In this document: positions 6,134 to 42,243 of the stretch, piece after piece
Layout of the letters: each line of letters starts with the position of its first letter
Position numbering within the stretch: position 1 is the first letter of the stretch
DNA from: a bacterium
Lineage (GTDB): Bacteria > Patescibacteriota > Minisyncoccia > Phycocordibacterales > UBA9973
Direction of reading: 5' to 3'
Length of the DNA stretch: 64,000 nt
NCBI GenBank assembly: GCA_037127795.1
Contig: JBAXXQ010000001.1
Location: 252,274 to 316,273 of the forward strand
Position numbers and translations under genes: made by a program
Notes under the pieces: model-generated
Seen by the model: only the letters and a program-made list of their open reading frames with translations
What the model was told of the DNA's origin: nothing
The model's database searches: none

Positions 6134-7546
6134 ATGAAATTATTTTCCAGAAAAACAAAAATTATCGCAACCATTGGCCCGGGGTCAGAATCAAAAGAAA
6201 TGTTCGCAAAACTTATTCACGCAGGGGTGAATGTAGCGCGTACCAATATGAGTCATGATGATCACGCAGGGCACACCAAGCGTATCAAAACTATTCGTGC
6301 TGTTTCAAAAAAAGAAGGAGTACCAGTAGCTATCTTGCAAGATCTTTCAGGACCAAAAATCCGTATTGGAGACTTTGCACAAGGACCTGTTGAGCTCGTA
6401 CCAGGAAAGCAATTTATTCTTTCAGGAACTCCTTGTGAAGGAGACGCAACAAAAGTATTTTTCAATTACCCAGATATTCGTCGCGATCTCAAGGTAGGAC
6501 AAGTGATCATGCTTGATGATGGAAAAAAGAAACTCGTAGTAACAAAAATTGCAGGAGATGATATCATAACAAAAGTTGTTGTCGGTGGTACAACAAAATC
6601 TCGTCGTGGGGTGAACCTCCCAGGTGCATACCTTTCTATTTCTGCACTCACAGACAAAGACAAAAAAGATCTCGCACTCGGTCTTGAGCTTGGTGTAGAT
6701 ATTATTGCATTGTCATTTGTGCGTACCGCAAAAGATATTGAAGAGCTTCGTGGTTTGATAAAAAAAGCAAAAGGTAATCAACTCATTGTTGCAAAGATTG
6801 AGACAGAAGAAGCAATTGCAAATATTGATGAAATTATTGCAGCAACAGATGCAGTTATGGTTGCTCGTGGAGATCTCGCTGTAGAGATTGGTCCAGAACG
6901 TGTTCCTGCTATTCAAAAAACTATTATAAAAAAATGTAATGATCTTGGTAAGCCGGTTATTGTTGCAACACAAATGCTCGAATCAATGATTCAAAGTCCA
7001 GTACCTACTCGTGCTGAAGTTTCAGACGTTGCGAATGCAATTTTTGATGGTGCAGATGCAGTCATGCTTTCAGAAGAAACAGCACTCGGTGCATATCCAG
7101 TAGAAGCAGTAACTACTATGCATCATGTTGCGCTCGATATTGAAGCACACATTGGGACACACCGTAGATTCCGTGTTCGTCATGACGATATTGTAGACTC
7201 TATTAGTTCTTCTGTAGTACACAACGCTGAAGACGCACATGCTCGTGCTATTGTTGCGCTTACTTCGAGTGGATTCACTCCTCGTATGATTGCTCGATAC
7301 AAGCCACAACAACCAATCATTGTACTTACTAGTTCAGAGCTTGTTGCTCGCCAAGTAATGCTTTCATATGGTTGTTTCCCAATTGTAGAAAAGAAATTCA
7401 AAGATATTTCTCAAGTTATGAAGGGGGTACATACATACTTGGAGCAAAAAGATTTGATCAATAAAAAAGATATCGTTATTCTATCAGCGGGGACTCCATG
7501 GGGTGTTTCTGGTGGTACAAACATGCTCGCAGTGCTTTCTCAATAG
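6134..7546 (+). CDS. pyk: Pyruvate kinase
   Basis: KTKIIATIGPGSES, NVARTNMSHDDH, MVARGDLAVEIG and C-terminal domain; 470 aa. Confidence 0.85.
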   Translation: MKLFSRKTKIIATIGPGSESKEMFAKLIHAGVNVARTNMSHDDHAGHTKRIKTIRAVSKKEGVPVAILQDLSGPKIRIGDFAQGPVELVPGKQFILSGTPCEGDATKVFFNYPDIRRDLKVGQVIMLDDGKKKLVVTKIAGDDIITKVVVGGTTKSRRGVNLPGAYLSISALTDKDKKDLALGLELGVDIIALSFVRTAKDIEELRGLIKKAKGNQLIVAKIETEEAIANIDEIIAATDAVMVARGDLAVEIGPERVPAIQKTIIKKCNDLGKPVIVATQMLESMIQSPVPTRAEVSDVANAIFDGADAVMLSEETALGAYPVEAVTTMHHVALDIEAHIGTHRRFRVRHDDIVDSISSSVVHNAEDAHARAIVALTSSGFTPRMIARYKPQQPIIVLTSSELVARQVMLSYGCFPIVEKKFKDISQVMKGVHTYLEQKDLINKKDIVILSAGTPWGVSGGTNMLAVLSQ

Positions 7547-7563
7547 TGGTATACTAGAGAGGT

Positions 7564-7920
7564 ATGAATATCATAATAAAATCAACAAACATGGAGCTTA
7601 CTCCGGCGATTAAGGATTATGCAGAAAAGCGTATCTCAAAAGCAATTGTAAAATATGTCACTGATGCCGCAGATCTTTCTATAGAAGTTGCAAAGACTAC
7701 CAATCATCACAAAAACGGTGATGTATTTATGGCAGAAACAAATGTCACTACTCCACTCGGTACACAATATCGCGCAGTGTCTGAAAAACCAGATCTCTAC
7801 GAAGCGATAGATGATGTCCGTGATACATTGGTACGTGAATTAAATAACTCAAAAGATAAAAAAGAAAATCTCTGGAGACGAAGCTCTCGCGCAATCAAAA
7901 AGATGGTACGAAAGTGGTAG
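7564..7920 (+). CDS. hpf: Ribosome hibernation promoting factor (HPF/RaiA, short form)
   Basis: N-terminus M.I.I.S.N.ELTPAI.DYAEKRISK with the beta-alpha-beta-beta-beta-alpha HPF signature; ~118 aa. Confidence 0.7.
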   Translation: MNIIIKSTNMELTPAIKDYAEKRISKAIVKYVTDAADLSIEVAKTTNHHKNGDVFMAETNVTTPLGTQYRAVSEKPDLYEAIDDVRDTLVRELNNSKDKKENLWRRSSRAIKKMVRKW

Positions 7921-7944
7921 TATTACGATAGTAAAAATAATAAG

Positions 7945-7983
7945 CATAGAGTATACTGTATGTATCTCTATGCTTTTATTTTT
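7945..7983 (+). terminator. Hairpin terminator after hpf (overlaps the start codon of the next gene)
   Basis: aagcatagag...ctctatgctt hairpin followed by ttattttttg. Confidence 0.35.
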
Positions 7984-10900
7984 TGTTCGACACAAGAAGA
8001 CTTTTTTTGCGCTCACATTTGTGTTTCTTTTTGGTGCAACAGTGTCTTTTGCGAATCCTCCTGTAGGTGGCTATGACCCTGGTACTATCCTTGATCCAGA
8101 TTGTGCACCAGGTAGTACAGACTGTACAGTAAATATAAATAATAAAATTAGTGCAGGAAATGGGGTTGAATTTGTCGGGCAAGCAATACAAGTCAAACTC
8201 GATGGAGCAAGTCTTTATAAATCAAATACGGGGTTAAAAATTTCTGATGGGTATATTGGACAAAGTTCTATTACTACTGTCGGGACTATTATTGCGGGGC
8301 ACTGGCATGGCGATGTGATAGATATTGCGCATGGTGGTACTGGGCTTGGCGCAACACCACAAAACGGAGAATTCCTTATCGGTAATGGTACTGGATACGA
8401 TTTGGTAAATCTTGCTGGGGCTGATGGTGTTGTTATTACAAATTCAGGAAGTACTGTGACTATTGGTCTTGGTACTAGTAATATACCAGTTATAACGAGT
8501 GTTTCTGGTACTGACTATATTCCAATCTATCAAACCACTAGTCCTGATGTTCGTAAAAAAATCACCTATAATGATTTGTTTTCTGGTGTTTTAGGGTCTT
8601 TGAAATATCAGGGTACATGGGATCCTGGTACAAACACACCTGCTATAGCAGATAGTGATTGTAATAGTTCTGCAAAAGGTAATTTTTATATTGTAGGTGC
8701 TTCAGGTAATAGACATATTGGTAGTGAATTTAGTTGGGAGTCTGGTGACTGGCTTATTTGTAAGGGGACTGTTTGGGAAGAGGTTGAAAAAACAAATAAT
8801 ATTGATTCTGTATTTGGTCGTATGGGAAGTGTTGTTGCTATGAATGGGGACTATACCGCATCACAAATCACTAATGTACCTTTTGGTAGTATTAGTTCTA
8901 TTACAGTGCAAAATGCTATTAATGAACTTGCGACAGAAAAAGAGCCAGTGATTGTTCCAGGACTTGCAAATGAATATTGGCGAGGAGATAAAACATGGCA
9001 AACATTGGATACTTCAAATGTTTCAGAGCATCCAGCAAGATTGTATTTTACTAATGCTCGCGCGGTAACAGCACTTACCGGGCAAAATCTTTCTATTTTT
9101 AATAACAATGTGGGATACAATTCTGGTACAGGTGCAGTAGGGCAAATTCCTTTTTGGAATGGTACAAATACTATAACAGGTGATACAGGGCTTGTTTGGG
9201 ATAATACTGATAAACAGCTTGTTATTGGTGGTGGGTCAAACTTCGCATTCTCTACACCATCTGCGGTGACTTTTAATATTGGTGGAAATGTCGATACGTT
9301 TTTTCAGGCAAATATTCAAAATCAGTCAAATGGTGCAAACGCATCAACTGATTGGATTGCAACATCTGACAATGGAAATGAGCTCGCAAACTATGTAGAT
9401 ATGGGAATTAATAGTTCTGGGTACAATACACCATCATTCAATATTACCGGAGTAAATGATGCATATTTATATAGTGCTGGAAATGATTTTGCGATCGGTA
9501 ATGCATCAATAGGAAAATCTTTAAAATTCTTTACTGGTGGAACAACTACTGCAAATCAGCGTTTAGTTATAGATGGTACAGGTGATGTAGTTTTTACACC
9601 AACATCTTCGTCTGCGACAACCTCATCATCTTCATTATCGTTTAATTCGACGTATGCGTTGACGGCTGCAAATACTGCAGTAACCACAGGGACTGTGTCG
9701 GCATTGGTAACAGCTCAGGGTGAGGTGGTCGGAAGTAGTATTACAAACGGGGTATTTAATGCGAGTGGACACAAATTGAGCTCTGCGGTGACATGGCCTA
9801 CAGTGCTTACTCCGACGTATTTTGATGAATATGATATTGCTGCGGGTGCAGGGTATTCACCAGTGATTCAATCTATTTCTATTGATACCGCTGTTACCGG
9901 AGGAAGTAATCAGCTTATTGGAGATTTGCGATATTCAACAGATGGAGGAAATACTTTTACATCTGCTGGGTCTGTAAAAAATTTCCCATTAACCTCTGGA
10001 TCGTATTTAACATTTTCATATACAGGTCTTTCTATTTCTGTTCCTAGTAATACTACTATTATATTTAGAGTATTTATATATGCGTCAGGAGTGGTGACAT
10101 CATCTCGTTCGGTGTATATGCGTAATATGCAAATTAATGGACAGATTGGTACTTCTACTGGATCTGTAAAAGGGGTAAGTATTGCAGGTAATTATACTGC
10201 ATCTGCAAGTAACCACGTGCTTAGTGCTTTGTACATAAATGGTACCTATAATGCCGCTGGGTATACTGGAGTAAAAAATTATGATTTGTATCAAGCAAAT
10301 GCGGCCGCAAGTAATTATTTTGCAGGAGTGGTAGGTATTGGGAATCTCAATCCGACATACATGCTCGATGTAGGAAGTAGTAGTGTCTCTGGTATTGTCG
10401 GGCGTTTTACGAATGCAACAGGGTCTTGTACGATATCTCCGACAACAACATCACTCTCATGTTCTTCAGATATAAATCTTAAGAAAAATATTGTCGTACT
10501 TGCAGACAATACACTCTTTACGCTCAGCACTATAACTACAGCACCAACAGCTACTACATTGGATAAAATAATGTCCCTTACCCCAGTGCAATATAATTGG
10601 AAAACAGAACAAGATACCGACCCAAAACACACCGGATTTATCGCGCAACAAGTAGAGCAAATATTCCCAGATCTCGTACTTACTGATCCAGAGACAAATC
10701 TCAAATCTGTAAACTATATGGGCTTTGCGCCATATCTTGTACAAGCGGTACAAGAGATAAATGTTACTATAAAAAATCTTTCTTCATTGGATACTGGAAA
10801 TATAAATTCTCTCGGCTCGCTCATAAAACAATTTCTTGCTGATTCAAAAAATAATATAGAAGATTTGTATGCAAAAAATATCCATAGTAGTAATCAAATT

Positions 10901-11044
10901 TGTATCAATAGTACTTGTATCAATGAAGATCAACTCAAACAAATGTTGAACAATACTACTCCGGTACAGCAATCAGTAGTAGATATTTCTATACAAGACC
11001 CTGCTATACCAGCAGTAATACCTGATACGAATTCTACCCAATAA
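7970..11044 (+). CDS. Giant secreted tail-fibre-like protein with C-terminal intramolecular chaperone / auto-processing domain (peptidase S74-like), paralog 1
   Basis: Signal peptide; Gly/Thr/Ser/Asn-rich body; C-terminal SCSSDINLKKNIV...LTPVQYNWK...HTGFIAQQVEQIFPDLV matches the endosialidase/tail-fibre chaperone motif (S-D-x-x-L-K-x-N-I ... GhIAQ-V); conserved CxxxxC-DQLKxML tail. Confidence 0.7.
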   Translation: MLLFFVRHKKTFFALTFVFLFGATVSFANPPVGGYDPGTILDPDCAPGSTDCTVNINNKISAGNGVEFVGQAIQVKLDGASLYKSNTGLKISDGYIGQSSITTVGTIIAGHWHGDVIDIAHGGTGLGATPQNGEFLIGNGTGYDLVNLAGADGVVITNSGSTVTIGLGTSNIPVITSVSGTDYIPIYQTTSPDVRKKITYNDLFSGVLGSLKYQGTWDPGTNTPAIADSDCNSSAKGNFYIVGASGNRHIGSEFSWESGDWLICKGTVWEEVEKTNNIDSVFGRMGSVVAMNGDYTASQITNVPFGSISSITVQNAINELATEKEPVIVPGLANEYWRGDKTWQTLDTSNVSEHPARLYFTNARAVTALTGQNLSIFNNNVGYNSGTGAVGQIPFWNGTNTITGDTGLVWDNTDKQLVIGGGSNFAFSTPSAVTFNIGGNVDTFFQANIQNQSNGANASTDWIATSDNGNELANYVDMGINSSGYNTPSFNITGVNDAYLYSAGNDFAIGNASIGKSLKFFTGGTTTANQRLVIDGTGDVVFTPTSSSATTSSSSLSFNSTYALTAANTAVTTGTVSALVTAQGEVVGSSITNGVFNASGHKLSSAVTWPTVLTPTYFDEYDIAAGAGYSPVIQSISIDTAVTGGSNQLIGDLRYSTDGGNTFTSAGSVKNFPLTSGSYLTFSYTGLSISVPSNTTIIFRVFIYASGVVTSSRSVYMRNMQINGQIGTSTGSVKGVSIAGNYTASASNHVLSALYINGTYNAAGYTGVKNYDLYQANAAASNYFAGVVGIGNLNPTYMLDVGSSSVSGIVGRFTNATGSCTISPTTTSLSCSSDINLKKNIVVLADNTLFTLSTITTAPTATTLDKIMSLTPVQYNWKTEQDTDPKHTGFIAQQVEQIFPDLVLTDPETNLKSVNYMGFAPYLVQAVQEINVTIKNLSSLDTGNINSLGSLIKQFLADSKNNIEDLYAKNIHSSNQICINSTCINEDQLKQMLNNTTPVQQSVVDISIQDPAIPAVIPDTNSTQ

Positions 11045-11049
11045 AACCT

Positions 11050-11274
11050 TTTGTTTTGTAGTCTTTACATAGTATACTTATAGCGTATATGCGCCACTTT
11101 TTTATCACACACAAGAAAACATTCTTCGCAATGTTATTTGTGATACTTTTTAGTACTACTATCTCTTTTGCTGACCGTGCAAACCCCTACACTGCAGGAG
11201 AAACTCTTGATCCAGACTGTGCGCCAGGAAGTGGGGTGAATTGTACGGTACATATTGCTGGTGGAGGAGGAACT
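11050..11274 (+). repeat. Copy A of a ~225 bp identical cassette (promoter + 5' end of gene)
   Basis: Sequence from tttgttttgtagtctttacatag... to ...gctggtggaggaggaact is identical to 14127-14354 except for a 3 nt GGA indel. Confidence 0.85.
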
Positions 11275-14121
11275 CAGACATTGCAAGATGTAACAACTGC
11301 AGGGAATTCTATAACTAATGATATTGGGAATCTTGCTGATAATACATGGAGGATAAATAGTAATGGTGTTGCAAGATTTGGACATCCTATAACTGGTACT
11401 GGAGTAGAGATAGACCCGGATGGAACTATACAATCAGTTGGTGGTAGTTATTCTACGTTTTTTACCGTGTATCCAGGTGGAGGGCAAATTTTAATGGGAG
11501 ATTTTGATGAAACTAGTGGTAAAACAAAATATTTATTAGATGATGTAGCACAAACCCAAACCTTCAATGCTAATAATGGGTTCTTATTTACAGGTGTTAA
11601 TTATCCAGGAGGGTTTGCAAGTATCAACCCAGATACTAATGAAATATTGTTAGGAGAATTCAACACATCAAATGATAATACACATATAGATATATTAAAT
11701 AATTCAGGACATACAGGTAATTATATAAGAACATATTCAAATCATGGGGAATTTAATAATTTAGGTGAAGGGATTAATTTAGATTTTGAACACAACCTAT
11801 TTCAATTAGGTGTATACAGTCAAGAAGGTCTTCAAACCTATATCTCTTTAGATGACAATGCTCAGACTCAATCTTTTAATGCTAGTAATGGGTTTAATTT
11901 TACAGGAAATAATTTTTCTTATGCAAATAGTGGTGGAGAGTATTTAATTAATGCAAACTTTAATAATCGAACTATTGTAATAGGAGATAATCAGCGTATT
12001 GCTGGTAATGGTAATAATTTAACTATTGATGATAATAACAATCTTATTACTTTAGGTAATATATCTTTAAGTGCTTCAATTGAATTAAACACATGGTCAG
12101 GTATAAATACATATTATGCTTATAGGGGGCATAATTTTACAGGAGGTGGTACATTGTCTACTGATGGTGATATAAGTGTAGGAAATAATATTGGAAACAC
12201 TGTTACAGGAGGATGGAGTATAGATAATGCAGGCGCAGCTCATTTTGCAGCAGGGAGCTTCAGTGTAGAAGGTAATGGTAATATTAATAGTGATGGTCAA
12301 TTAAGCCTTGCGGGTGGTAATGCCGGAATATTTAGTGATGGAAGTTTTAGTACTTATAATAACTCACTTGCTGCTAAAACAATAAGTTACAATGGGCATT
12401 TGTTACAAGTAACAGATAGTGTTTATGGTGGTAATTTTTTTAATGTAACAGAGGATGGTACTTTATCAATATCTCAATCTTCAAGTGGCAACAACACATT
12501 ATACATAAATGGTAGTGGTCAGTTCTATATAGCAGATAAGCAGAATGGTTACCAAACATTTAATGTGGGGTATGATTATTCTTATTTTCAAGATAAATAT
12601 TATGGTACTGGTATAGATGCTCAATATGCAAGATTTGAAAAAGATAATATATTCTTTCAAGATGTAACTGGTACACAGAAATATTTTACAGCTGATACTT
12701 TTGGTATACAAACAACTGATCCGATATCTGGAGTTAATGTGTTAGGTCCTAAATGGCTGTTAGGAAGATATAATACTAGTACTCAATCTTTAAATGTTTC
12801 TGTTGATGGTACACAATATAATATTCCTACGCAAACAATTTCGGTAAATGTATCAAATAATTCCGTATACTCTAGTTTATTAGGAAGTTCTAATTTGGCA
12901 TATTCTAATGTTTTAGGAAATAACGCAGGTCTTGGGGCAAGTGGTACATATAATAATTTTTTAGGACCACTTAGTGGCTTTGGAACAAGTGCCTCTTATT
13001 CAAATTTTATTGGAAACGGTGCTGGAGGGTTTGCGACAAATGCATCTCACTCCAACTTTATCGGAGATGGAGCTGGAGCCTTCTCATCATCTTCATCATA
13101 TTCTACCTTTATAGGTTTTCATGCTGGTGCTGATAGTATTTTTAATCCTTTAAATGGACAAAACAATATTATTATTGGTACAAATATAACTCTTCCTCCG
13201 AGTACAAGTAATGCTATTAATATAGGCGGTGTTTTGTTCGGTCTTAATACTCAAAATGATTATAGTGCCAATACTGCTTATTTTACCGCTGTTACCTCTG
13301 GCAAAATAGGTATTGCTAATGCTAATCCGTATTATACCCTCGACGTAGGTAATTCGTCGGTATCAGGAATAGTAGCTCAGTTCACCAACTCATCAGGTAG
13401 TTGTACTATCTCCCCAACAGGTTCAGCAGTTTCTTGTTCTTCCGACATCAACCTCAAGAAAAATATTGTTGCACTCAAGGATAATACACTCTTCACTCTC
13501 AACACTATCACTACAGCACCAACAGCTACCACACTAGACAAACTCATGACACTTACTCCAGTAAGTTACAACTGGAAAACAGAAAACGATACTGATAATA
13601 AACACACTGGATTCATCGCACAACAAGTAGAACAAGTATTCCCAGATCTAGTAACTACAGATCCAACCACTAATCTCAAATCTCTCAACTATATGGGCTT
13701 TGCACCGTATATAGTACAAGCAATACAAGAAATGAATTTCAAGATGACTGCAATCATTCCTGATGATCTTGATGCGACTGCGTATGCAAAAATAAAAAGT
13801 TTCTTGCATCAAGTTGCAACTGATGGAGAAATTACTTTCAATACTTTGAAAACAACACTTATCACTAGTGATGAAATTCGTGCAAATAAAACAACAACCA
13901 ACCAGCTCTGTGTCGGCACCACTTGTATCGATAGTGATCAGCTTGCAAAAATGCTCCAGTCTGCAAATTCACAAAATACAGCGCCAGGTACTCTTGTAGC
14001 AACTCCAGATACTACACAAACTCCAGCAACACCAGACCCTATACTAGCTCCTACTCCTGACCCAGCCCCAAGTACACCTGCTGTCACCGACACTACGACA
14101 CCTACTGTTTCTACACAATAA
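11089..14121 (+). CDS. Giant secreted tail-fibre-like protein with C-terminal S74-like intramolecular chaperone domain, paralog 2
   Basis: Same architecture; first 62 codons and 44 nt upstream identical to paralog 3; Gly/Ala/Asn repeat block; SSDINLKKNIVAL...YNWK...HTGFIAQQVEQVFPDLV; Pro/Thr-rich C-tail. Confidence 0.7.
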   Translation: MRHFFITHKKTFFAMLFVILFSTTISFADRANPYTAGETLDPDCAPGSGVNCTVHIAGGGGTQTLQDVTTAGNSITNDIGNLADNTWRINSNGVARFGHPITGTGVEIDPDGTIQSVGGSYSTFFTVYPGGGQILMGDFDETSGKTKYLLDDVAQTQTFNANNGFLFTGVNYPGGFASINPDTNEILLGEFNTSNDNTHIDILNNSGHTGNYIRTYSNHGEFNNLGEGINLDFEHNLFQLGVYSQEGLQTYISLDDNAQTQSFNASNGFNFTGNNFSYANSGGEYLINANFNNRTIVIGDNQRIAGNGNNLTIDDNNNLITLGNISLSASIELNTWSGINTYYAYRGHNFTGGGTLSTDGDISVGNNIGNTVTGGWSIDNAGAAHFAAGSFSVEGNGNINSDGQLSLAGGNAGIFSDGSFSTYNNSLAAKTISYNGHLLQVTDSVYGGNFFNVTEDGTLSISQSSSGNNTLYINGSGQFYIADKQNGYQTFNVGYDYSYFQDKYYGTGIDAQYARFEKDNIFFQDVTGTQKYFTADTFGIQTTDPISGVNVLGPKWLLGRYNTSTQSLNVSVDGTQYNIPTQTISVNVSNNSVYSSLLGSSNLAYSNVLGNNAGLGASGTYNNFLGPLSGFGTSASYSNFIGNGAGGFATNASHSNFIGDGAGAFSSSSSYSTFIGFHAGADSIFNPLNGQNNIIIGTNITLPPSTSNAINIGGVLFGLNTQNDYSANTAYFTAVTSGKIGIANANPYYTLDVGNSSVSGIVAQFTNSSGSCTISPTGSAVSCSSDINLKKNIVALKDNTLFTLNTITTAPTATTLDKLMTLTPVSYNWKTENDTDNKHTGFIAQQVEQVFPDLVTTDPTTNLKSLNYMGFAPYIVQAIQEMNFKMTAIIPDDLDATAYAKIKSFLHQVATDGEITFNTLKTTLITSDEIRANKTTTNQLCVGTTCIDSDQLAKMLQSANSQNTAPGTLVATPDTTQTPATPDPILAPTPDPAPSTPAVTDTTTPTVSTQ

Positions 14122-14126
14122 AATTG

Positions 14127-14354
14127 TTTGTTTTGTAGTCTTTACATAGTATACTTATAGCGTATATGCGCCACTTTTTTATCACACACAAGAAAACATT
14201 CTTCGCAATGTTATTTGTGATACTTTTTAGTACTACTATCTCTTTTGCTGACCGTGCAAACCCCTACACTGCAGGAGAAACTCTTGATCCAGACTGTGCG
14301 CCAGGAAGTGGGGTGAATTGTACGGTACATATTGCTGGTGGAGGAGGAGGAACT
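14127..14354 (+). repeat. Copy B of the ~225 bp identical cassette
   Basis: Direct comparison with 11050-11274. Confidence 0.85.
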
Positions 14355-17300
14355 AATGGGTGGGATAGTATGTTGGCGCAAAATCAAGTACAGACGCAGG
14401 ATAGAACTATTGATGTTAATAATAAATATTTACGATTTAGTAATATAAATGAAGTTGATTTTTCTGGGGTCTCTGGTCAAAACACTATTGAAATTGTGGA
14501 AGGGCAGGTAAATATGGGAGATATTGGTGGGGTTGGAAATGGTGTTTATTTTTCAGTTGATAGTCCTAATAATAAAATTTATTCATTGGCTGGAGGAAAT
14601 CCAGCTGGATTGAATCTTGATTTTAATAATCAAATATATGAATTGGGTGATTATGGTCACAATAATGATGCTACAACATTATCAGTAGATAATACTCATG
14701 ATATTATTTCTACTTATAGTGGTTCAAATAATTATAAAAATTCAGGTATTTATTTAGATTATGGAAATGCTGATTTTTATTATGGTGATTATGGTCACAA
14801 TCAAAATGGTACAGCAATTTTACTTGATGATCTAGCTCAAACCCAAACCTTCAATGCTAATAATGGGTTTACGTTTAATACTGACAATGGAGGATTTATT
14901 GTATCAGGTAGCAACAGTTACCATTATCAAGATGGGTTATTAGGGGCAATAATATCAGGTAGAATAGCATTTATAGGGGATAATTCTGGCGACTTTAATA
15001 GTACTAGTTTATTGGTTAATGACAATACTGGACAACAATTTATTGATTTTAATGCGCAAAACGGTTTCCAATTCACAGGAGGTTCTATAAGTAGTGATGG
15101 TAATATCTTACTAACAAACGGGGGTACTATATCTGCAAATGCAAATGATTTACAACTAATAAATAATGGTAATTCAAACTATATAAATGTAGGCGCAGGT
15201 GGTAATATAGAGGCACATTCAACAACTGGTGGGACGATAGCATTACAAGATGATTTAAATGGTGCAAAAATATTAATTAACAATTATGCGGGTGATATTG
15301 AATTAACATCTACTTTAGGAGCACCAATAAAAATGTTTGGAGGTAGTGTTCAAACTGATGGTGATATAGAAGGTGGTGGCAAGATAACCACACCTAATTC
15401 AACATTATTTTCAGATGGTTCTGTAGGACTTCCTCATGCTGCTATTAATGTAGACGGGGGTGGTTATTTATCTAATGGTAATTTTAGTTGGGATGCAGGT
15501 GGAAATATAACTACTTATGGTGATTTAAGTTTAATGGGGGGTAATGCGGGGATATTTTCAAATGGACATATATTTTCGGGGGTAGATGGGTTTAATAATT
15601 TTGATGCAACGCAATCTGGTTCACTTACAATTGCTTCAATTAGTGATGGAACAGCAACATTATTTACTGGTGGCGATGGAGATTTTTACATAGCAGATAA
15701 AACAAGTGGTAACCAAACATTCTATGTAGATGTAGCTGGAATGCAAACAACCGATGCAGTAGCGGGGGCGGGAACACTAAGCCCTGCGTGGAAGCTTGGA
15801 AGTTATAATAGCACTTCTGAATCTGTCGCTGTGTCTATTGGGGGTACACTATACAATCTCTCTACGCATGGTGTCGCACTCGATAGTAACAATAGCTTTA
15901 TTGTCGGAGGGGCTGGATCTTTTGGTGCAAATATAAATTCTGTATATGTAGGATTTGCAGCTGGGACTGGTGCAAATGATGCAAACAATTCAAACTTCCT
16001 TGGTGCAAATGCAGGGCTCAATGCGCAATTTGCAAACCATTCAAATTTCTTTGGTGCAGATGCTGGTAATGGTGCAATCAATGCAAGTGTCTCAAACTTC
16101 ATTGGGTACCAGGCGGGGTATGGGGCTGTGAATGCTACGGGCTCAAACTTCTTGGGGCAAGATGCCGGTCATGGTGCAACATATGCAACCAATTCAAACT
16201 TCTTTGGATTCCAGGCTGGATATGGTGCGCTCGGTAGTAATAGCTCTCCATTTAATAGTAACTTCTTTGGGTATCAAGCAGGGTATGGTGATTACAATCT
16301 CACCGACTCAAACTTCTTTGGATACCAAGCAGGATATATTGCAAATACTGCTATAAGTTCAAACTTCTTTGGAAATAGCGCAGGGTATGGAGCAACTAAT
16401 GCTGCGTATGCAAACTTTATGGGGTTTTATGCTGGGTATGGAGCTGGTAATGCAAACGGCTCAAACTTCTTTGGACGCAATGCAGGAGATTCTGCAAGTA
16501 ATGCATCATATTCAAACTTTATTGGATTTGCAGCAGGTAAGTATGCAACAAATGCTCAAATTTCAAACTTTATTGGAATCGGCGCAGGTCTTGATGCAAC
16601 AAATGCAAGTGAGTCAAATTTCTTTGGAGATAATACTGGGCGTGGTGCAACCAATGCTTCAAATGCAATATTTATAGGTGCAAGTGCTGGGTATAATGAT
16701 GCTGTAAATAATGTTTCAACTGGAGGGTTTTCAATTCTTATAGGGCCACATACAAATACTGGTGGCTATTCAAACAGTATTGCAATAGGTGGCTCTGCTA
16801 CCAATACCGCAACAAATCAATTTATGATCGGCTCAACTTCATTCCCAATCAATACTACTGTCATCAAAGGTGCAAGTACACAATGTACTATCACCACAGG
16901 TACAGGTATTGCATGTTCGTCTGATGCAAGTCTCAAGAAAAATATTGTAGCCGTACAAGATGGTACGCTTGCAAAAGTACTTGCACTCCGCCCGGTAACA
17001 TACAACTGGAATGATGAACAAGATACTGATCCGACACATATAGGATTCATTGCGCAAGAAGTAGAAACAGTATTCCCACAAGTAGTATCTATAGACCCTG
17101 CAACACATCTCAGACTGCTCTCTACGACCTCACTTATTCCTTATACTATCAAAGCTATACAAGAGATGCATATTACTATTACGTCTGTAATTCCAGATAC
17201 TCTTGATAGTACTGCGTATGGCAAAATAAAAGAATTTTTGCGAGAAATTGCTACAGAAGGGAAGGCTGTAGTAGATATTGTACAAACACATACACTCTGT

Positions 17301-17528
17301 GTAGACGATGTGTGTGTCACCCGTGATCAGTTCAAAAACATGGTCCAGCAAGCAGGTCAGCAACAAAGTGCTCCGAGTGTTGTTGTGCCTGTAGCACCTA
17401 GTACAACACCAGTAACCACTCCAACACCAGTTTCATCAGACGCTACTGTAGTAGACCCAGTTGTTACCCCAACACCAAGTCCTGTGGTAGATACTACTCC
17501 TGCTCCTGCATCTTCTGAAAATCAGTAA
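14166..17528 (+). CDS. Giant secreted tail-fibre-like protein with long SNFxG-xAG-GA-NA repeat array and C-terminal S74-like chaperone domain, paralog 3
   Basis: Identical N-terminus to paralog 2; ~17 tandem 14-16 aa Gly/Ala/Asn repeats; CSSDASLKKNIVAV...YNWN...HIGFIAQEVETVFPQV; Pro/Thr/Val-rich tail. Confidence 0.7.
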   Translation: MRHFFITHKKTFFAMLFVILFSTTISFADRANPYTAGETLDPDCAPGSGVNCTVHIAGGGGGTNGWDSMLAQNQVQTQDRTIDVNNKYLRFSNINEVDFSGVSGQNTIEIVEGQVNMGDIGGVGNGVYFSVDSPNNKIYSLAGGNPAGLNLDFNNQIYELGDYGHNNDATTLSVDNTHDIISTYSGSNNYKNSGIYLDYGNADFYYGDYGHNQNGTAILLDDLAQTQTFNANNGFTFNTDNGGFIVSGSNSYHYQDGLLGAIISGRIAFIGDNSGDFNSTSLLVNDNTGQQFIDFNAQNGFQFTGGSISSDGNILLTNGGTISANANDLQLINNGNSNYINVGAGGNIEAHSTTGGTIALQDDLNGAKILINNYAGDIELTSTLGAPIKMFGGSVQTDGDIEGGGKITTPNSTLFSDGSVGLPHAAINVDGGGYLSNGNFSWDAGGNITTYGDLSLMGGNAGIFSNGHIFSGVDGFNNFDATQSGSLTIASISDGTATLFTGGDGDFYIADKTSGNQTFYVDVAGMQTTDAVAGAGTLSPAWKLGSYNSTSESVAVSIGGTLYNLSTHGVALDSNNSFIVGGAGSFGANINSVYVGFAAGTGANDANNSNFLGANAGLNAQFANHSNFFGADAGNGAINASVSNFIGYQAGYGAVNATGSNFLGQDAGHGATYATNSNFFGFQAGYGALGSNSSPFNSNFFGYQAGYGDYNLTDSNFFGYQAGYIANTAISSNFFGNSAGYGATNAAYANFMGFYAGYGAGNANGSNFFGRNAGDSASNASYSNFIGFAAGKYATNAQISNFIGIGAGLDATNASESNFFGDNTGRGATNASNAIFIGASAGYNDAVNNVSTGGFSILIGPHTNTGGYSNSIAIGGSATNTATNQFMIGSTSFPINTTVIKGASTQCTITTGTGIACSSDASLKKNIVAVQDGTLAKVLALRPVTYNWNDEQDTDPTHIGFIAQEVETVFPQVVSIDPATHLRLLSTTSLIPYTIKAIQEMHITITSVIPDTLDSTAYGKIKEFLREIATEGKAVVDIVQTHTLCVDDVCVTRDQFKNMVQQAGQQQSAPSVVVPVAPSTTPVTTPTPVSSDATVVDPVVTPTPSPVVDTTPAPASSENQ

Positions 17529-18345
17529 AAGATATTCGTTTGCCATTTTCTGGAATAACAGTATCTATAATAAAATTGCCGCCTACGAAGTGTGCTTCTA
17601 CTATTTTTACTCGCTTAGTAATGCCTTCTTTTTTTGTATAAAAATATAATCCTGGCCAGCCAAAGTATGCGCGGTATTTTCTATCGAGTTCTATAGGATC
17701 ATCATCAAGATTGATTTCTCCGTGTTCTTTGGTGATTTTTTTTGTCTTACTTATATGTCGTGTGTCTTGTGGTATTGGGTGAGTATTATGTAAAAAAATA
17801 TCTTGGATAGTCTGAGGGAGTATCGCTACTGCGAGCGTGTTTAATTTTGCACGAAGGCTTCCTGTCGTGTCGTCTGGTGCTATAGCAAGCTCTTGTTGTG
17901 CAATGATATCTCCTGCATCGAGCTCATATACCATTTGTTGTATTGCAATACCAGTGACAGCATCGCCATGCAAAATAGCACTTTCTACAGGGGTTGCGCC
18001 GCGGTATTTGGGGAGGAGGGAATAGTGCACATTTATAGTGCCATACGTAGGAAGTTGTATAAGTGCTTCAGGGAGGATTTTGCCATATGCGACAACAACA
18101 AAAAGATCAAAATGTTCTTTTTGTAATTGCTCTATATATTCTGGTGTAATACGTTCTGGTTGATATACTGGGATATGCTCGTAGTCGCCCCAGTGTTTGG
18201 GAGCAGGAGACTCGATATGCATTCCACGACCTACTGGTCTATCTGGGTTGGTAATAATTGCACTAGGAGTAAGTCCCGCGTTTTTTAAACTATCTAAAAA
18301 GTCTACGGTAAATGCTGGTGTTCCAAAGAATGCTATTTTTTTCAT
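17494..18345 (-). CDS. fmt: Methionyl-tRNA formyltransferase
   Basis: MKKIAFFGTP...; formyl-transferase N-domain (HYSLLPKYRG) and C-terminal domain; def-fmt operon context; 3' end overlaps the giant gene 3' end by 35 nt on the opposite strand. Confidence 0.85.
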   Translation of the reverse strand: MKKIAFFGTPAFTVDFLDSLKNAGLTPSAIITNPDRPVGRGMHIESPAPKHWGDYEHIPVYQPERITPEYIEQLQKEHFDLFVVVAYGKILPEALIQLPTYGTINVHYSLLPKYRGATPVESAILHGDAVTGIAIQQMVYELDAGDIIAQQELAIAPDDTTGSLRAKLNTLAVAILPQTIQDIFLHNTHPIPQDTRHISKTKKITKEHGEINLDDDPIELDRKYRAYFGWPGLYFYTKKEGITKRVKIVEAHFVGGNFIIDTVIPENGKRISFTDFQKMQEQE

Positions 18346-18842
18346 TATTTTGTGTGATGAGGTGCTGGTACATCTTCGAGATTACTTGCTTTGTCTATAA
18401 AAAGGACACCAACAAGGTGGTCCATTTCATGTTGAAAAATTTGTGCGAGTAGTCCGCGACCACTCAATACAAATTCATTACCAGCAAAATTTGTTGCACG
18501 AATAGTTGCTGTTTCTGAACGTTTTACTTTGCCGTATTTCCAGCGTACAGAAAGACATCCTTCAGATACTACTACTTTCTTTTTTCCTACACGGATAAAA
18601 GAAGGATTGATACAAACGATATCATTTTCTGCATCAGAAAAAATCTTTTTTGATATGACAAAAATTTGTTTACTTACTCCTATTTGTGGTGCAGCAATAG
18701 CAACACCGTCTTCTTCGTGAGAAAGCGCTTCGCTCATATCATTGAGTATTTTTTGCAGTGCGGGAGTATTGAATTCGTCGGCGCCTACTGGTGCTGCGTC
18801 GTGGCGCAATACAGGAGCTGGTTCTTGCAAGATAGGTTTCAT
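18345..18842 (-). CDS. def: Peptide deformylase
   Basis: Motifs EGCLS and HEMDHL (metal ligands). Confidence 0.85.
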   Translation of the reverse strand: MKPILQEPAPVLRHDAAPVGADEFNTPALQKILNDMSEALSHEEDGVAIAAPQIGVSKQIFVISKKIFSDAENDIVCINPSFIRVGKKKVVVSEGCLSVRWKYGKVKRSETATIRATNFAGNEFVLSGRGLLAQIFQHEMDHLVGVLFIDKASNLEDVPAPHHTK

Positions 18843-28840: not shown

Positions 28841-29323
28841 ATGCAATATAAAAATCTTAAAAAAATATTCGCTGTAGGTATATTTTTGGGAATAATGTTT
28901 TTTTCAAATTTGTTAGTATTTGCTCAAGGTAACCCTGGTGCAAATAGTACTGGGACACCAACAAATAATCCTGGTGCAAATGCTACAGCAAATCAAACAA
29001 CTCCATCTGCTACGGCAAATAATACTGTTATTCCGCCAGGAGATACAAAGATAAGTTATAGTATTAATAACCCGCTTGGAGTTACTAGTATTGATGAGGT
29101 TATACAAAAAATAATGGCTGTTATAGTTAAACTCGCAGTTCCTGTAATTATCTGCCTCTTTTTATATACAGGATTTATGTTTATTACAGCACAGGGAGAT
29201 ACCACAAAATTAAAAACAGCAAAAACTATGCTTTGGCAAGTAATTGTAGGAACTATTATTATCCTTGGTGCATGGGCTATAGCAGCTGCTATTGTTACAA
29301 CAGTAAGCTTAATAACAGGATAA
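28841..29323 (+). CDS. VirB2/TrbC-like pilin-type protein 2 with Asn/Thr/Pro-rich spacer
   Basis: Signal (LLVFA/QG); low-complexity NPGANSTGTPTNNPGANATANQTT linker; helix-AQGDTTK-helix C-terminal hairpin. Confidence 0.5.
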   Translation: MQYKNLKKIFAVGIFLGIMFFSNLLVFAQGNPGANSTGTPTNNPGANATANQTTPSATANNTVIPPGDTKISYSINNPLGVTSIDEVIQKIMAVIVKLAVPVIICLFLYTGFMFITAQGDTTKLKTAKTMLWQVIVGTIIILGAWAIAAAIVTTVSLITG

Positions 29324-34446: not shown

Positions 34447-34522
34447 TGGTGCGCCTAGCAGGACTTGAACCTGCGACATTCTCCTTAAGAGGGAGCTGCT
34501 CTACCAACTGAGCTATAGGCGC
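34447..34522 (-). tRNA. tRNA-Lys (anticodon CTT), CCA encoded
   Basis: Reverse complement GCGCCTATAGCTCAGTTGGTAGAGC...CTCTTAA...GGTTCAAGTCCTGCTAGGCGCACCA folds into a cloverleaf. Confidence 0.8.
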
Positions 34523-34623
34523 ATATTTATTTTGTAAAAGTATTTTTCTATAGTATCACTTTGCGAACGGAGCCGCTACAACTGAACTATGGGTGCGTAT
34601 ATGCATTTTATAAAAATGCCGTG

Positions 34624-34705
34624 TGCCGAGGAGAGGACTTGAACCTCCATACCTCGCGGTGCTTGCTCCTAAGGCAAGTGCGTCTACCAATTTCGCCACC
34701 TCGGC
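34624..34705 (-). tRNA. tRNA-Leu (anticodon TAG), long variable arm, no encoded CCA
   Basis: Reverse complement GCCGAGGTGGCGAAATTGGTAGACGC...CTTAGGA...GGTTCAAGTCCTCTCCTCGGCA. Confidence 0.8.
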
Positions 34706-34740
34706 ATGAATCATACTATATACTATCTTTGTAGGTTTTT

Positions 34741-34900
34741 CAACAAAACAATTTATTTGGGACTCGGTCACGAGTTACTAATTCGCCTTGCTCATAAGTA
34801 CTCGCGACCCCGCCTCAGCGCTGTATCGCCTCCCAGGCGCGCGCTTCCGGCTTTCTCGTCTGCACTCAAGGCAATCATAAAAAATACTCAAAAGAGTGTT
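34741..34900 (-). ncRNA. Candidate structured RNA (GC-rich island within the tRNA operon); identity unknown
   Basis: Local GC is much higher than the surrounding spacers; complementary segments ggtcacgagt...actcgcgacc, GCGCGC palindrome, CCGGAAGC; no ORF; co-oriented between two tRNA-Leu genes. Confidence 0.2.
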
Positions 34901-34911
34901 TTTTATGATTG

Positions 34912-34994
34912 TGCCCGAGGCGGGACTCGAACCCGCACGACATCACTGTCTGAGGATTTTAAGTCCTCTATGTCTACCATTCCATCACTCGGGC
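34912..34994 (-). tRNA. tRNA-Leu (anticodon TAA), long variable arm
   Basis: Reverse complement GCCCGAGTGATGGAATGGTAGACATAGAGGACTTAAAATCCTC...GCGGGTTCGAGTCCCGCCTCGGGCA. Confidence 0.8.
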
Positions 34995-35016
34995 AAAGAA
35001 CACGCAAAATGCGTTG

Positions 35017-35088
35017 AGGTCCGGGCGAGAATCGAACTCGCGTATAGTTCTTTTGCAGAGAACCGCCTTACCACTTGGCCACCGGACC
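35017..35088 (-). tRNA. tRNA-Cys (anticodon GCA)
   Basis: Reverse complement GGTCCGGTGGCCAAGTGGTAAGGCGGTTCTCTGCAAAAGAAC...GCGAGTTCGATTCTCGCCCGGACCU; discriminator U. Confidence 0.8.
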
Positions 35089-42148: not shown

Positions 42149-42231
42149 GCGTCGGTGGTAGAGTGGTCAATTACAACAGACTGTAAATCTGTCGCCTTCG
42201 GGCTACGAAGGTTCAAATCCTTCCCGGCGCA
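42149..42231 (+). tRNA. tRNA-Tyr (anticodon GTA), long variable arm
   Basis: GCGTCGGTGGTAGAGTGGTCAATTACAACAGACTGTAAATCTGTCGCCTTCGGGCTACGAAGGTTCAAATCCTTCCCGGCGCA; G-U pair in acceptor stem. Confidence 0.8.
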
Positions 42232-42243
42232 CAAAATACAAAA

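Follow-up and report, generated by a model that had tools for sequence, protein, structure and literature searches.

A tandem triplet of predicted Sec-exported fibre proteins with S74-type chaperone domains in a Patescibacteria genome

In our study, three tandem genes in the small genome of an uncultured member of the Patescibacteria were found to encode paralogous proteins (A, B, and C), which we read, with a probability of about 0.65, as Sec-exported, self-cleaving trimeric surface fibres for attachment; the anchoring, the cleavage, and the target are the parts that we infer. The function as a surface fibre or adhesin is proposed by analogy with known fibres. The design of a short leader, an S74 chaperone domain, and a C-terminal tail is a large, so far undescribed Patescibacteria variant of the S74 fibres. 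The idea of a cellular S74 fibre is itself not new, as it has been proven for the mosaic adhesive trimer (MAT) fibres of Bdellovibrio bacteriovorus (Caulton et al., 2024; PMC10769870; PDB 8ojn/8onb/8onc), and the three proteins are each already named "tail fiber domain-containing protein" in NCBI.

The genes were located in the window (the whole stretch of 64 kb of DNA that was analysed) as three consecutive open reading frames on the + strand, with the positions and lengths given in a preliminary description of this DNA. That description called the proteins giant; at about 1000 aa they are large, not giant.

7970..11044, + strand: fibre gene A, 1024 aa (NCBI MEI6022495.1)
11089..14121, + strand: fibre gene B, 1010 aa (MEI6022496.1)
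14166..17528, + strand: fibre gene C, 1120 aa (MEI6022497.1)

No NCBIfam family was matched by A, B, or C. Simple scans of positions 7400–18400 for sigma-70 promoters and intrinsic terminators were uninformative, as shuffled sequence gave more sites and the spacers contained none, and the Rfam scan of the window gave tRNAs only.

The N-terminus of each protein contained a 28-aa signal-peptide-like segment with a basic n-region (RHKK), a hydrophobic core of 18 residues, and S-F-A at positions −3 to −1, and this was the sole hydrophobic segment of each protein. It was followed by a leader with the sequence DPDCAPGS(T/GV)(D/N)CTV at residues 41/42–54, so that the predicted Sec signal peptide and the Cys motif claimed earlier for the start of all three proteins are indeed present in A, B, and C.

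7970..8137, + strand: signal peptide (aa 1–28) and Cys-loop leader (aa 29–56, ..YDPGTILDPDCAPGSTDCTV..) of gene A
11089..11256, + strand: signal peptide and Cys-loop leader (..YTAGETLDPDCAPGSGVNCTV..) of gene B
14166..14333, + strand: signal peptide and Cys-loop leader of gene C, first 56 residues identical to those of B

The conservation among A, B, C, and 18 relatives ended about 28 residues past the signal peptide, and the leader consensus was PPxSPYxPGxTLDPxCxPGxxC, with one predicted disulfide loop. Every cysteine of the three proteins was found in a close pair. Neither an LPxT[GASN] motif nor a hydrophobic run at the C-terminus was found in A, B, and C, which places them outside the sortase-anchored (LPXTG) class, and no wall- or membrane-anchoring domain of known type was found in them.

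The C-terminal part of each protein contained a Peptidase_S74 domain (Pfam PF13884), with E-values of 2.2e-14 in A, 1.9e-14 in B, and 2.6e-17 in C. The corresponding scores of 53.9, 54.1, and 63.3 bits all exceeded the gathering score of 22 by a wide margin in the HMM search that the preliminary description had proposed as a check.

10466..10681, + strand: Peptidase_S74 core of gene A, aa 833–904 (Ser833 at nucleotides 10466–10468, Lys838 at nucleotides 10481–10483)
13441..13656, + strand: Peptidase_S74 core of gene B, aa 785–856 (Ser785, Lys790)
16920..17087, + strand: Peptidase_S74 core of gene C, aa 919–974 (Ser919, Lys924)

The S-D-x-x-L-K motif was found in all three proteins, as SDINLK in A and B and as SDASLK in C, and the dyad columns were invariant in the alignment of A, B, and C. 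The C-terminus as a single sequence reached only E 0.2–0.4 against the PDB sequences, for which reason a profile search was needed. The profile of the C-terminal-module family matched a phage long tail fibre (6f45, 1e-11), the entry 8jov (2e-10), the intramolecular chaperone domain (ICA) of eukaryotic MyRF (7dc3, 2e-8), and the Bdellovibrio proteins Bd3182 (8ojn, 9.1e-5) and Bd2133 (8ond, 3.6e-3), where the similarity to the two MATs was weak and confined to the region before S74. Distant relatives of the C-terminal module were also found in Pseudobdellovibrio genomes. In the model of the chaperone domain the predicted fold was that of the solved chaperone domains, with the MyRF ICA as the best structural match. 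The two AF2 models, both monomers, had a mean pLDDT of 66–72, and the S74 core of gene B was modelled with pLDDT > 90. A phage S74-like intramolecular chaperone at the C-terminus is thus confirmed by Pfam, by the profile search against the PDB sequences, and by the fold. The long C-terminal consensus string proposed for the three proteins fitted A and B, whereas C was found to lack its LDVG.SSVSGIV part; within the S74 domain, an insertion of 16 aa (NTLFTL.TITTAPTAT) was missing from C as well.

The chaperone was not located at the end of the protein, as had been noted before. The extension beyond the core, with a length of about 90–125 residues, contained a helix, a Cys hairpin-helix element, and a Pro/Thr tail. 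It had been put at about 150–200 aa, which is an overstatement; 191–225 residues follow the catalytic serine, of which about 100 are ordinary chaperone domain, and since about half of the claimed extension is of normal chaperone-domain length, the true extra part is only about 90–125 residues.

10901..11041, + strand: Cys hairpin-helix element (aa 978–992) and C-terminal tail (aa 993–1024) of gene A
13909..14118, + strand: Cys hairpin-helix element (aa 941–955) and Pro/Thr tail (aa 956–1010) of gene B
17298..17525, + strand: Cys hairpin-helix element (aa 1045–1059) and Pro/Thr tail (aa 1060–1120) of gene C

The C(I/V)xxxC(I/V)xxDQ(L/F)xxM motif was conserved in all three proteins, and in the model of gene B the element was predicted to form a beta hairpin and a helix (pLDDT 82–86), followed by a disordered tail. 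The share of Pro+Thr+Ser in the tail was 55% in B and 49% in C, but only 34% in A, and the tail was poorly conserved (A/C identity 16–19%). The viral homologues differed in this part: past the core, a median of 11.5 residues followed in 89 viral open reading frames and of 113 in genome open reading frames, and the tail extension was found in 0/89 viral and 21/94 genome open reading frames. The leader, the Cys pair before the cleavage site, and the Cys hairpin tail were each present in none of the 89 viral S74 proteins sampled. In some relatives the extension was swapped for Ig-like or lectin-like (H-lectin-like) domains.

Between the leader and the chaperone, the proteins were mosaics. Protein A consisted of the leader (1–56), a module common to phage minor-tail and tail-fibre proteins (75–370), a widespread module (415–560), a unique region (560–785), and the S74 domain with the tail (785–1024). 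Four PHROG tail-fibre families were matched (phrog_5481, 31460, 19966, and 1210). The tblastn search of A and C against GenBank phages gave module-level matches only, none covering ≥80% of either protein, and no close viral relative of protein A was found. These module matches bear out the suggestion that the proteins are built from parts of phage receptor-binding proteins. The shaft of gene C was modelled as 16 strictly periodic 17-residue rungs (pLDDT 85–96); Foldseek with the repeat-shaft model gave no PDB match beyond the chaperone, and the Pfam YadA_head family was absent from protein C despite its repeats.

15897..16676, + strand: 17-residue (51-nt) repeats of gene C, SNFFGxxAGxGAxNAxx, a predicted periodic beta-solenoid-like shaft
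11032..11271, + strand: 240-nt direct repeat, copy 1 (end of A, spacer, first ~60 codons of B)
14109..14348, + strand: 240-nt direct repeat, copy 2 (end of B, spacer, first ~60 codons of C)

The two copies of the 240-nt repeat were 98% identical. The leaders of B and C showed 98% identity, against 60% for A and B; the chaperone cores showed 82% identity for A and B, against 55% for B and C; and the shafts of A and B after the leader showed 25%. Protein B combines a 5′ end like that of C with a 3′ end like that of A and is a recombinant mosaic.

The leader was found to be widespread. The exhaustive search with the leader profile gave at least 1,659 cluster representatives (clusters at 50% identity), while the word-indexed search gave 11 short N-terminal fragments only. 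The match was N-terminal in nearly all of the best 150 of these at least 1,659 matches. S74 was present in 45 of the 51 long leader-bearing members sampled, and the tail element in 32 of the 45 members with leader and S74; the Ser-Lys dyad was kept in 38/45 family members. The homologue alignment was analysed on a 40-sequence subset of 120. The named genomes with the leader were all Patescibacteria (Paceibacterota, Nomura-, Kaiser-, and Saccharibacteria), with frequent tandem arrays, and three further loci were leader-positive too. Leader-plus-S74 homologues were found in Saccharibacteria MAGs (L022, L024, L029, L038, and L041). Some leader-bearing relatives contained GDSL lipase, F5/8 type C, or beta-propeller domains, and 7 of the 51 contained YadA_head repeats. 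Among the papers listed, none linked S74 or endosialidase-chaperone terms to Patescibacteria, CPR, or Saccharibacteria; one Roizmanbacteria CRISPR paper used "tail fiber" once, and the main text and supplements of a Saccharibacteria Tn-seq paper contained no tail-fibre or S74 terms.

A previous study reported that Bd3182 cuts itself at S782, that the S782A substitution abolishes the cleavage, and that the MAT fibres are displayed on the surface (PMC10769870). Bdellovibrio employs this design in prey recognition. The proteins of our study resembled the MATs in being chromosomal non-phage genes of about 1000 aa with multiple paralogs, in the order of signal peptide, paralog-conserved N-terminal element, variable fibre, and C-terminal S74 with SDxxxK, and in the match of the family profile to the Bd3182 crystal-structure sequence (E 9e-5). 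However, the N-terminal element was about 28 residues long with one disulfide loop here, whereas a beta-rich domain of about 130 aa is described for the MATs. The chaperone was followed here by a clade-specific extension of 90–125 residues; the 13 MATs with S74, by their published description, end in this domain, with 140 residues after the serine in Bd3182 (PMC10769870). Bdellovibrio is a diderm predator, whereas our organism is a presumed monoderm Patescibacterium with tandem arrays. Patescibacteria are not among the taxa in Supplementary Table S3 of the MAT paper (PMC10769870).

With the phage chaperones (K1F endosialidase, 3GW6; T5 pb1, 4UW8; the GA-1/phi29-type neck appendage, 3GUD) the three proteins shared the Pfam family, the Ser-Lys dyad with i/i+5 spacing, and the position of the domain downstream of a repetitive fibre or shaft. 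The phage versions, in contrast, are without a signal peptide, are located in virion gene modules, and typically have the domain as the C-terminal end of the protein. MyRF (7DC3) resembles the three proteins in that its chain continues beyond the domain; it differs in being a membrane-bound transcription factor without a fibre shaft, whose segment after the ICA is a transmembrane anchor and a luminal domain. The YadA-like trimeric autotransporter adhesins share repetitive, probably trimeric, beta-rich adhesin-like shafts, including the 17-residue SNFFGxxAG repeats of protein C. They differ in that A, B, and C contained no C-terminal beta-barrel anchor (Pfam, E < 0.1), that trimerisation here would presumably proceed via S74, and that the organism is probably without an outer membrane.

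The reading as surface fibres implies the following steps. The signal peptide would be removed after Ser-Phe-Ala28. Outside the membrane, the S74 domains of three chains would associate and template the folding of the shaft into a trimeric fibre, as suggested by the homology to endosialidase, T5 pb1, and Bd3182. The Ser-Lys dyad would then cut at the serine and release the chaperone together with the helix, the disulfide hairpin-helix, and the Pro/Thr tail, leaving a mature fibre tip that would end in a Cys-x10-Cys stapled loop. The replacement of the extension by Ig-like or lectin-like domains in relatives would be odd for a discarded piece and counts against its discard. More speculatively, and by analogy with phage and MAT fibres, the short leader might be the cell-proximal end through which the fibre is docked on a common component of the envelope; counting against this docking are the leader of about 28 residues without a known anchor domain and the lack of a conserved partner gene beside the arrays. 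The surface ligands bound might differ with the variable shafts and tips and could plausibly be those of an episymbiont's partner or host cell, where the episymbiotic lifestyle and the host binding are assumptions. The conserved 5′ and 3′ ends let the paralogs recombine so that the middles are reshuffled, as is shown by B, a C/A mosaic.

The proteins could instead be released from the cell and, as self-trimerising lectins or enzymes of the tailspike type (such as polysaccharide depolymerases), attack or bind the capsule or envelope of cells nearby. The S74 domain was first defined in endosialidase tailspikes, the GenBank phage matches included an "endo N-acetylneuraminidase" and a "hyaluronidase", and protein A contained one Asp-box-like motif (STDGGNTF, aa 656); the missing LPXTG motif and second hydrophobic segment and the enzyme-type domains of some relatives point the same way. 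However, no catalytic domain was detected in A, B, or C with Pfam, NCBIfam, or PHROGs, the closest functional precedent is surface displayed, and the invariance of the leader across paralogs and classes suggests a common docking and argues against free diffusion, which makes the release of the proteins unlikely. MyRF is anchored in the membrane by the segment that follows its ICA, and cleavage frees the N-terminal trimer. A similar C-terminal tether, in which the Pro/Thr extension holds the nascent trimer in the wall until S74 cleavage frees the mature fibre, would agree with the best structural match and with an extension confined to the cellular homologues. It would also agree with the fact that surface proteins of monoderms typically span the wall with segments rich in Pro and Thr. 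We consider such a tether improbable, as the tail is without a transmembrane segment, LPXTG motif, or known wall-binding domain, is predicted to be disordered, is poorly conserved between A and C, and is swapped for other domains in relatives; it would also be compatible with N-terminal docking rather than exclusive of it.

The genes could also be phage-derived cargo, i.e., prophage, tailocin, or mobile-element remnants or mis-assembled phage DNA that serves a virion or particle. The PHROG matches, the module likeness to phage tail proteins, and flanks that differ from genome to genome, so that conserved synteny was rejected, would fit such an origin, as would an IS200-like transposase located 6 kb from the array of a relative (L003). 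However, the locus was located between hpf (upstream) and fmt (downstream, in the run fmt-def-hisS-lepB), as first described, and housekeeping DNA was found throughout the window, with genes for IMPDH, pyruvate kinase, HPF, Fmt, Def, HisS, LepB, GyrA, IF-2, ClpB, GltX, and UvrABC. No capsid, portal, terminase, sheath, tube, or baseplate genes were found in the 64 kb, in line with the earlier remark that phage structural genes were missing nearby. The GC content (0.35–0.41) was not deviant, and each protein carried a predicted Sec signal peptide. To our knowledge, virion fibres have no Sec signal peptide. The leader and the tail were absent from the viral S74 proteins, protein A had no close viral relative, and the same architecture was found among housekeeping genes of many Patescibacteria genomes: the equivalent triplet of L003 was located between cellular genes, and gyrB, EF-G, and ribosomal protein S7 were neighbours in other genomes. 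A prophage or tailocin origin was rejected on the annotation of the window and of the locus of the relative, and the origin as phage cargo, already largely refuted, is highly improbable. The reading of the preliminary description is thus largely borne out, and neither of the two findings that it named as refuting turned up. A dedicated partner gene was likewise rejected; when the neighbours of 20 loci were clustered, the clusters held only the fibre genes themselves, shadow ORFs antisense within them, and genes that were either housekeeping or sporadic.

If the proteins were merely secreted enzymes, our finding would be a routine refinement of annotation. For protein science, the family offers a compact candidate for N-terminal docking and natural variants of the S74 chaperone that carry an extra module at the C-terminus. 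Genetic tools now exist for cultivated Saccharibacteria. In the papers covered here (PMC10633639; PMC11623550), the attachment of Patescibacteria was linked to type IV pili and a small number of generic adhesins only. A wider reading, which we hold only tentatively, is that the leader, variable shaft, S74 domain, and tail form a phylum-wide, Patescibacteria-specific fibre system that may be a principal host-recognition apparatus of these episymbionts and a cellular counterpart of phage receptor-binding proteins, with arrays reshuffled by recombination at the conserved ends to set and change the host range, the leader as a new docking signal, and the extension as a new accessory of S74 assembly in monoderm envelopes. 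For the recognition of partner cells by ultrasmall Patescibacteria and the attachment to them, a very large fibre family is an obvious candidate for the determinant of specificity, a candidacy suggested by at least 1,659 clusters, by self-assembling members similar to phage receptor-binding proteins, and by the prey-recognition design of Bdellovibrio.

The locus was found to consist of three consecutive, co-oriented genes, here called A, B and C, with the product lengths that the preliminary description had reported. The genes were located in the ORF listing as follows:

7970-11044, + strand, fibre gene A, 1024 aa
11089-14121, + strand, fibre gene B, 1010 aa
14166-17528, + strand, fibre gene C, 1120 aa

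In the same listing, A/B and B/C are separated by spacers of 44 nt. The products (MEI6022495.1-MEI6022497.1, 580,599-bp contig) carry the NCBI label 'tail fiber domain-containing protein', and no NCBIfam match was found for A, B or C. A shared CATAG(A)GTATACT element was present 10-12 nt before each ATG (7945-7957, 11068-11078 and 14145-14155), and could act as a -10-like element, in which case transcript leaders would be very short. No obvious Shine-Dalgarno-like sequence precedes the three start codons, and a search of the A-B-C spacers revealed neither a consensus sigma-70 promoter nor a terminator. The 3' ends of gene C and of fmt (- strand) overlap convergently by 35 nt (17494-17528).

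The Sec signal peptide and the DPDCAPGS..CTV motif described earlier were located in all three proteins. The signal-peptide-like N-terminus comprises 28 residues: a basic n-region (RHKK) precedes a hydrophobic core of 18 residues, and positions -3 to -1 read S-F-A. This segment is the sole hydrophobic run in each protein; the motif lies at residues 41/42-54. All cysteines were found in closely spaced pairs, as would be expected of disulfide-stapled extracytoplasmic proteins.

Cysteine pairs of the three fibre proteins
A: 45/52, 231/264, 820/831, 978/983
B: 44/52, 772/783, 941/946
C: 44/52, 907/917, 1045/1050

The C-terminal module had been described as an S74-like intramolecular chaperone, and the HMM search bore this out. 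Pfam Peptidase_S74 (PF13884) was found at residues 833-904 of A (E 2.2e-14), 785-856 of B (E 1.9e-14) and 919-974 of C (E 2.6e-17), in each case well above the curated cut-off. All three carry the S-D-x-x-L-K catalytic motif, whose Ser and Lys form invariant alignment columns. In an AlphaFold2 model of B 738-1010, built from a 25-sequence alignment, the S74 core has a pLDDT above 90; the sole meaningful Foldseek match in the PDB was the MyRF ICA domain (7dc3; probability 1.0, E only 0.03). A profile of the C-terminal module matched the PDB sequences 6f45 (phage long tail fibre, 1.2e-11), 8jov (1.7e-10) and 7dc3 (1.6e-8), as well as the Bdellovibrio fibre structures 8ojn/Bd3182 (9.1e-5) and 8ond/Bd2133 (3.6e-3). 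Taken together, the Pfam, AlphaFold2/Foldseek and PDB-profile matches make the S74 call robust, and membership in the S74 intramolecular-chaperone family is secure. The long consensus string proposed earlier fits A and B, but part of it is missing from C. The missing part includes a 16-residue insertion, NTLFTL(S/N)TITTAPTAT, inside S74 of A and B (10508-10555 and 13483-13530), which is also absent from the Pfam model; it is common to several Patescibacteria homologues and was modelled with high confidence.

The C(I/V)xxxC(I/V)xxDQ(L/F)xxM motif was present C-terminally in A, B and C, whose chains continue for 191, 225 and 201 residues, respectively, after the catalytic Ser. Bd3182, a Bdellovibrio fibre, has 140 residues after its Ser (PMC10769870). 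Since about 100 of the 191-225 residues belong to the ordinary chaperone domain, the extra segment is real, but its earlier estimate of about 150-200 aa was overstated and the true addition is about 90-125 residues. The tail after the Cys motif is Pro/Thr-rich in B (55% Pro/Thr/Ser) and C (49%) but less so in A (34%). In the AlphaFold2 model of B, the extension forms a second helix, a beta-hairpin closed by two Cys and a short helix (pLDDT 82-86), followed by a disordered Pro/Thr tail. To compare genome and viral S74 ORFs, a single profile was used to pick the 80 top-ranked loci of genomes and the 80 top-ranked viral (IMG/VR) loci, and their ORFs were scanned with HMMs for the chaperone core and the Cys-hairpin element; both sets are samples ranked by one criterion and not censuses.

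S74 ORFs in the best 80 loci of each set (viral; genome)
ORFs with S74 core: 89; 94
Cys-hairpin tail element: 0/89; 21/94
N-terminal leader: 0/89; 16/94
Cys-x10-Cys pair directly before the catalytic Ser: 0/89; 35/94
Median residues after the chaperone core: 11.5; 113

The terminal residue is Gln in A (..STQ, 11039-11041), B (..STQ, 14116-14118), C (..ENQ, 17523-17525) and many relatives. Among the matches listed, a C-terminal Gln was found in 16/91 genome S74 ORFs versus 1/88 viral ORFs. It was present in 10 of 51 proteins selected by the leader (binomial p ~1.6e-4 against 4.9% Gln in tails), and a C-terminal Glu in another 16 of these 51; the terminal Gln fits no known sorting signal. In some relatives (P0004, P0002, P0041, P0131, P0135, P0139-P0142 and P0154) a folded domain takes the place of the Pro/Thr tail or is added to it. 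This domain is bacterial Ig-like (DUF5011/PF16403) or H-type-lectin-like (PF09458; just below threshold in P0041), which would be odd if everything beyond the cleavage site were discarded with the chaperone.

Relatives of the C-terminal module were sought in 185,579 species-representative genomes. Among the matches listed, the closest were almost all Patescibacteria (Nomurabacteria, Paceibacterota, Saccharibacteria, Kaiser-, Zambryski-, Uhr- and Dojkabacteria, Minisyncoccia), and the more distant ones included Pseudobdellovibrio, Bacteroidota and others. Across Patescibacteria classes the leader aligns as the signal peptide followed by a Cys-loop segment of consensus PPxSPYxPGxTLDPxCxPGxxNCTV, with invariant Ala28, Tyr34, Leu40, Pro42, Cys44 and Pro46 in the alignment. 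An exhaustive HMMER search of 1.84 billion cluster representatives with the leader profile yielded 1,659 proteins with E ≤ 1e-3, of which 188 reached E ≤ 1e-10, and nearly all of the 150 best matches listed had the leader at the extreme N-terminus. In a sample of 51 long members picked by the leader alone, Peptidase_S74 was found in 45, YadA-head repeats in 7 and a bacterial Ig-like domain after S74 in 5; the 45 S74 members retained the Cys-hairpin tail in 32 cases and the [ST]-D-x3-K motif in 38. This co-occurrence indicates that leader, S74 and tail belong together in a single coherent architecture. The locus represents a distinct Patescibacteria-type fibre architecture, undescribed as such in the literature searched.

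The fibre proteins matched the PHROGs tail-fibre families phrog_5481, 19966 and 31460 and the PblB-type phrog_1210. Protein A is a mosaic of modules.

Modules of A (residues)
1-56, leader
75-370, module duplicated in a metagenomic relative
193-351, match to phage minor-tail/tail-fibre proteins at 31-38% identity
415-560, widespread module
560-785, unique region
C-terminal of the unique region, S74 block

A single Asp-box-like motif, STDGGNTF (aa 656-663, 9935-9958), was found in the unique pre-S74 region of A, and none in B or C. Protein C contains a 51-nt (17-residue) repeat, SNFFGxxAGxGAxNAxx, modelled by AlphaFold2 as 16 strictly periodic rungs (pLDDT 85-96), which is consistent with a predicted beta-helical shaft; Foldseek found no monomeric PDB counterpart of this model. 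Residues 606-1059 of C matched phage tail-structural/virion-structural proteins, and residues 784-1008 matched PblB-type receptor-binding proteins. In searches with A and with C, no phage protein reached 80% coverage of either.

A 240-nt repeat, 98% identical (11032-11271 and 14109-14348), covers the spacer and the first ~60 codons of B and C, and the spacers of B and C are near-identical (41/44 nt).

Identity between neighbouring paralogs (A/B; B/C)
Leader: 60%; 98%
Shaft: 25%; 41%
Pre-S74 tip: 55%; 30%
Chaperone core: 82%; 55%

On these sequence identities B is a recombinant, and conserved ends around variable middles are the pattern that would be expected of cassette-like reshuffling. Because conserved ends flank variable middles, short-read assemblies break inside the fibre genes. 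A Logan contig assembled independently from short reads of the same organism stops exactly at the stop codon of gene A, and most homologues of the C-terminal module in databases lie on 1-2 kb contigs; the fibre genes therefore fragment assemblies, and fibre copy number in MAGs is probably underestimated.

In our study, the annotation of the 64-kb window agreed with the earlier placement of the locus between hpf and fmt. The genes for an AI-2E transporter, an IMPDH/GMP-reductase family protein, pyruvate kinase and HPF lie upstream of A, and those for Fmt, Def, HisS and LepB lie downstream of C on the opposite strand. Farther along are S1, GyrA, IF-2, ClpB, GltX, UvrA/B/C, tRNAs and a few type IV secretion-like genes. 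The tRNAs include a four-tRNA cluster at 34447-35088 (-; Lys-CTT, Leu-TAG, Leu-TAA, Cys-GCA) and tRNA-Tyr at 42149-42232 (+). A monoderm-type T4SS has been reported for Patescibacteria. A weak T4SS-pilin-like ORF (28841-29323, below the Pfam threshold) and the genes for a VirD4/TraG-like coupling protein, a Lamin-tail-domain and PKD protein and a DUF5667 protein (59395-61281, 61285-62601 and 62582-63346, respectively) are further envelope-related genes of the window and are consistent with such a system.

When relatives were surveyed for copy number and synteny, tandem arrays recurred but the flanks were not syntenic between genomes. Fibre arrays were found as a triplet in a Paceibacterota MAG (L003) and as pairs in L031 and L054; S74-ending arrays from outside this family, without the leader motif, comprised four genes in a Saccharibacteria MAG (L037, 5069-16562) and five in a Chitinophagaceae MAG (L075, 1379-11501). 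The L003 triplet is set among cellular genes (HhH-GPD glycosylase, MFS transporter, RNase J, solute-binding protein). Recurrent neighbours were gyrB, EF-G and ribosomal protein S7. A large CarboxypepD_reg surface protein occurred in three loci, all Pfam-scanned (L020 3907-5823, L030 10961-14191, L038 10551-12491), and a second family in three (L020 10910-12658, L024 14726-16456, L054 16770-18512), whose identity as a PilB-like type II/IV secretion ATPase comes from a Pfam scan of the L020 member only. Both families adjoin or sit within a few kb of the fibre genes, too sparsely for linkage. No broadly shared neighbour family was found at the fibre loci. The fibres appear self-sufficient, in keeping with an intramolecular chaperone.

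The best-supported reading of A, B and C is an exported, self-cleaving fibre with seven steps. The proteins would be exported by Sec and lose their signal peptide, after which, by homology, the C-terminal chaperone would nucleate trimerisation, as has been shown for endosialidase, T5 pb1 and Bd3182. Conservation of the Ser-Lys motif suggests autoproteolysis, by which the chaperone and extension would be released and a disulfide-stapled tip exposed. Docking to the envelope might be the task of the invariant Cys-loop leader, and ligand binding that of the variable shafts and tips. Recombination between paralogs, shown at the sequence level, diversifies the fibres. One rival is that the proteins are released tailspike-like enzymes or lectins. 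Another takes MyRF as its model: the Pro/Thr tail would be a transient wall tether, and cleavage would free the fibre. Phage or tailocin cargo is essentially excluded: no capsid, portal, terminase, tube, sheath or baseplate genes were found in the 64-kb window, and nothing in it amounts to an obvious prophage. The housekeeping flanks, the absence of virion genes and an unremarkable GC (0.35-0.41 across the locus) rule out a prophage. The earlier suggestion of a cellular fibre built of phage receptor-binding parts is supported, with the consensus string and the extension size corrected.

The nearest described system is the mosaic adhesive trimer (MAT) fibres of Bdellovibrio bacteriovorus, of which Caulton et al. 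(2024) reported 21, surface displayed, with a signal peptide and a conserved ~130-aa N-domain (PMC10769870). Thirteen of the 21 end in S74 with an SDxxxK motif, and Bd3182 self-cleaves at S782, which S782A blocks (PMC10769870). The taxa given with S74-like fibres in its Supplementary Table S3 are Micavibrio, Ca. Uabimicrobium, Omnitrophica and Dokdonia; Patescibacteria are absent from that list (PMC10769870). A, B and C share with MATs a terminal S74 region, a signal peptide, a similar size, occurrence as paralogs and a weak sequence homology, but lack the MAT N-domain, because conservation in their family stops after about 28 residues; the post-chaperone extension is an additional feature. 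By analogy, they would work like a MAT or phage fibre. Among the papers listed in the literature searches, none joined Patescibacteria/CPR with S74 or the endosialidase chaperone; 'tail fiber' has a single mention in a CRISPR paper on Roizmanbacteria. The adhesins named in a Saccharibacteria genetics paper are exclusively of VCBS, dockerin and FN3 type, and tail-fibre and S74 terms are absent from its supplements. Domain-level annotation in NCBI and a published cellular precedent, the MAT fibres, are already established. What makes the Patescibacteria-specific family worth following up is how large and coherent it is, together with its leader and tail elements and its relevance to the question of how episymbionts recognise their hosts.
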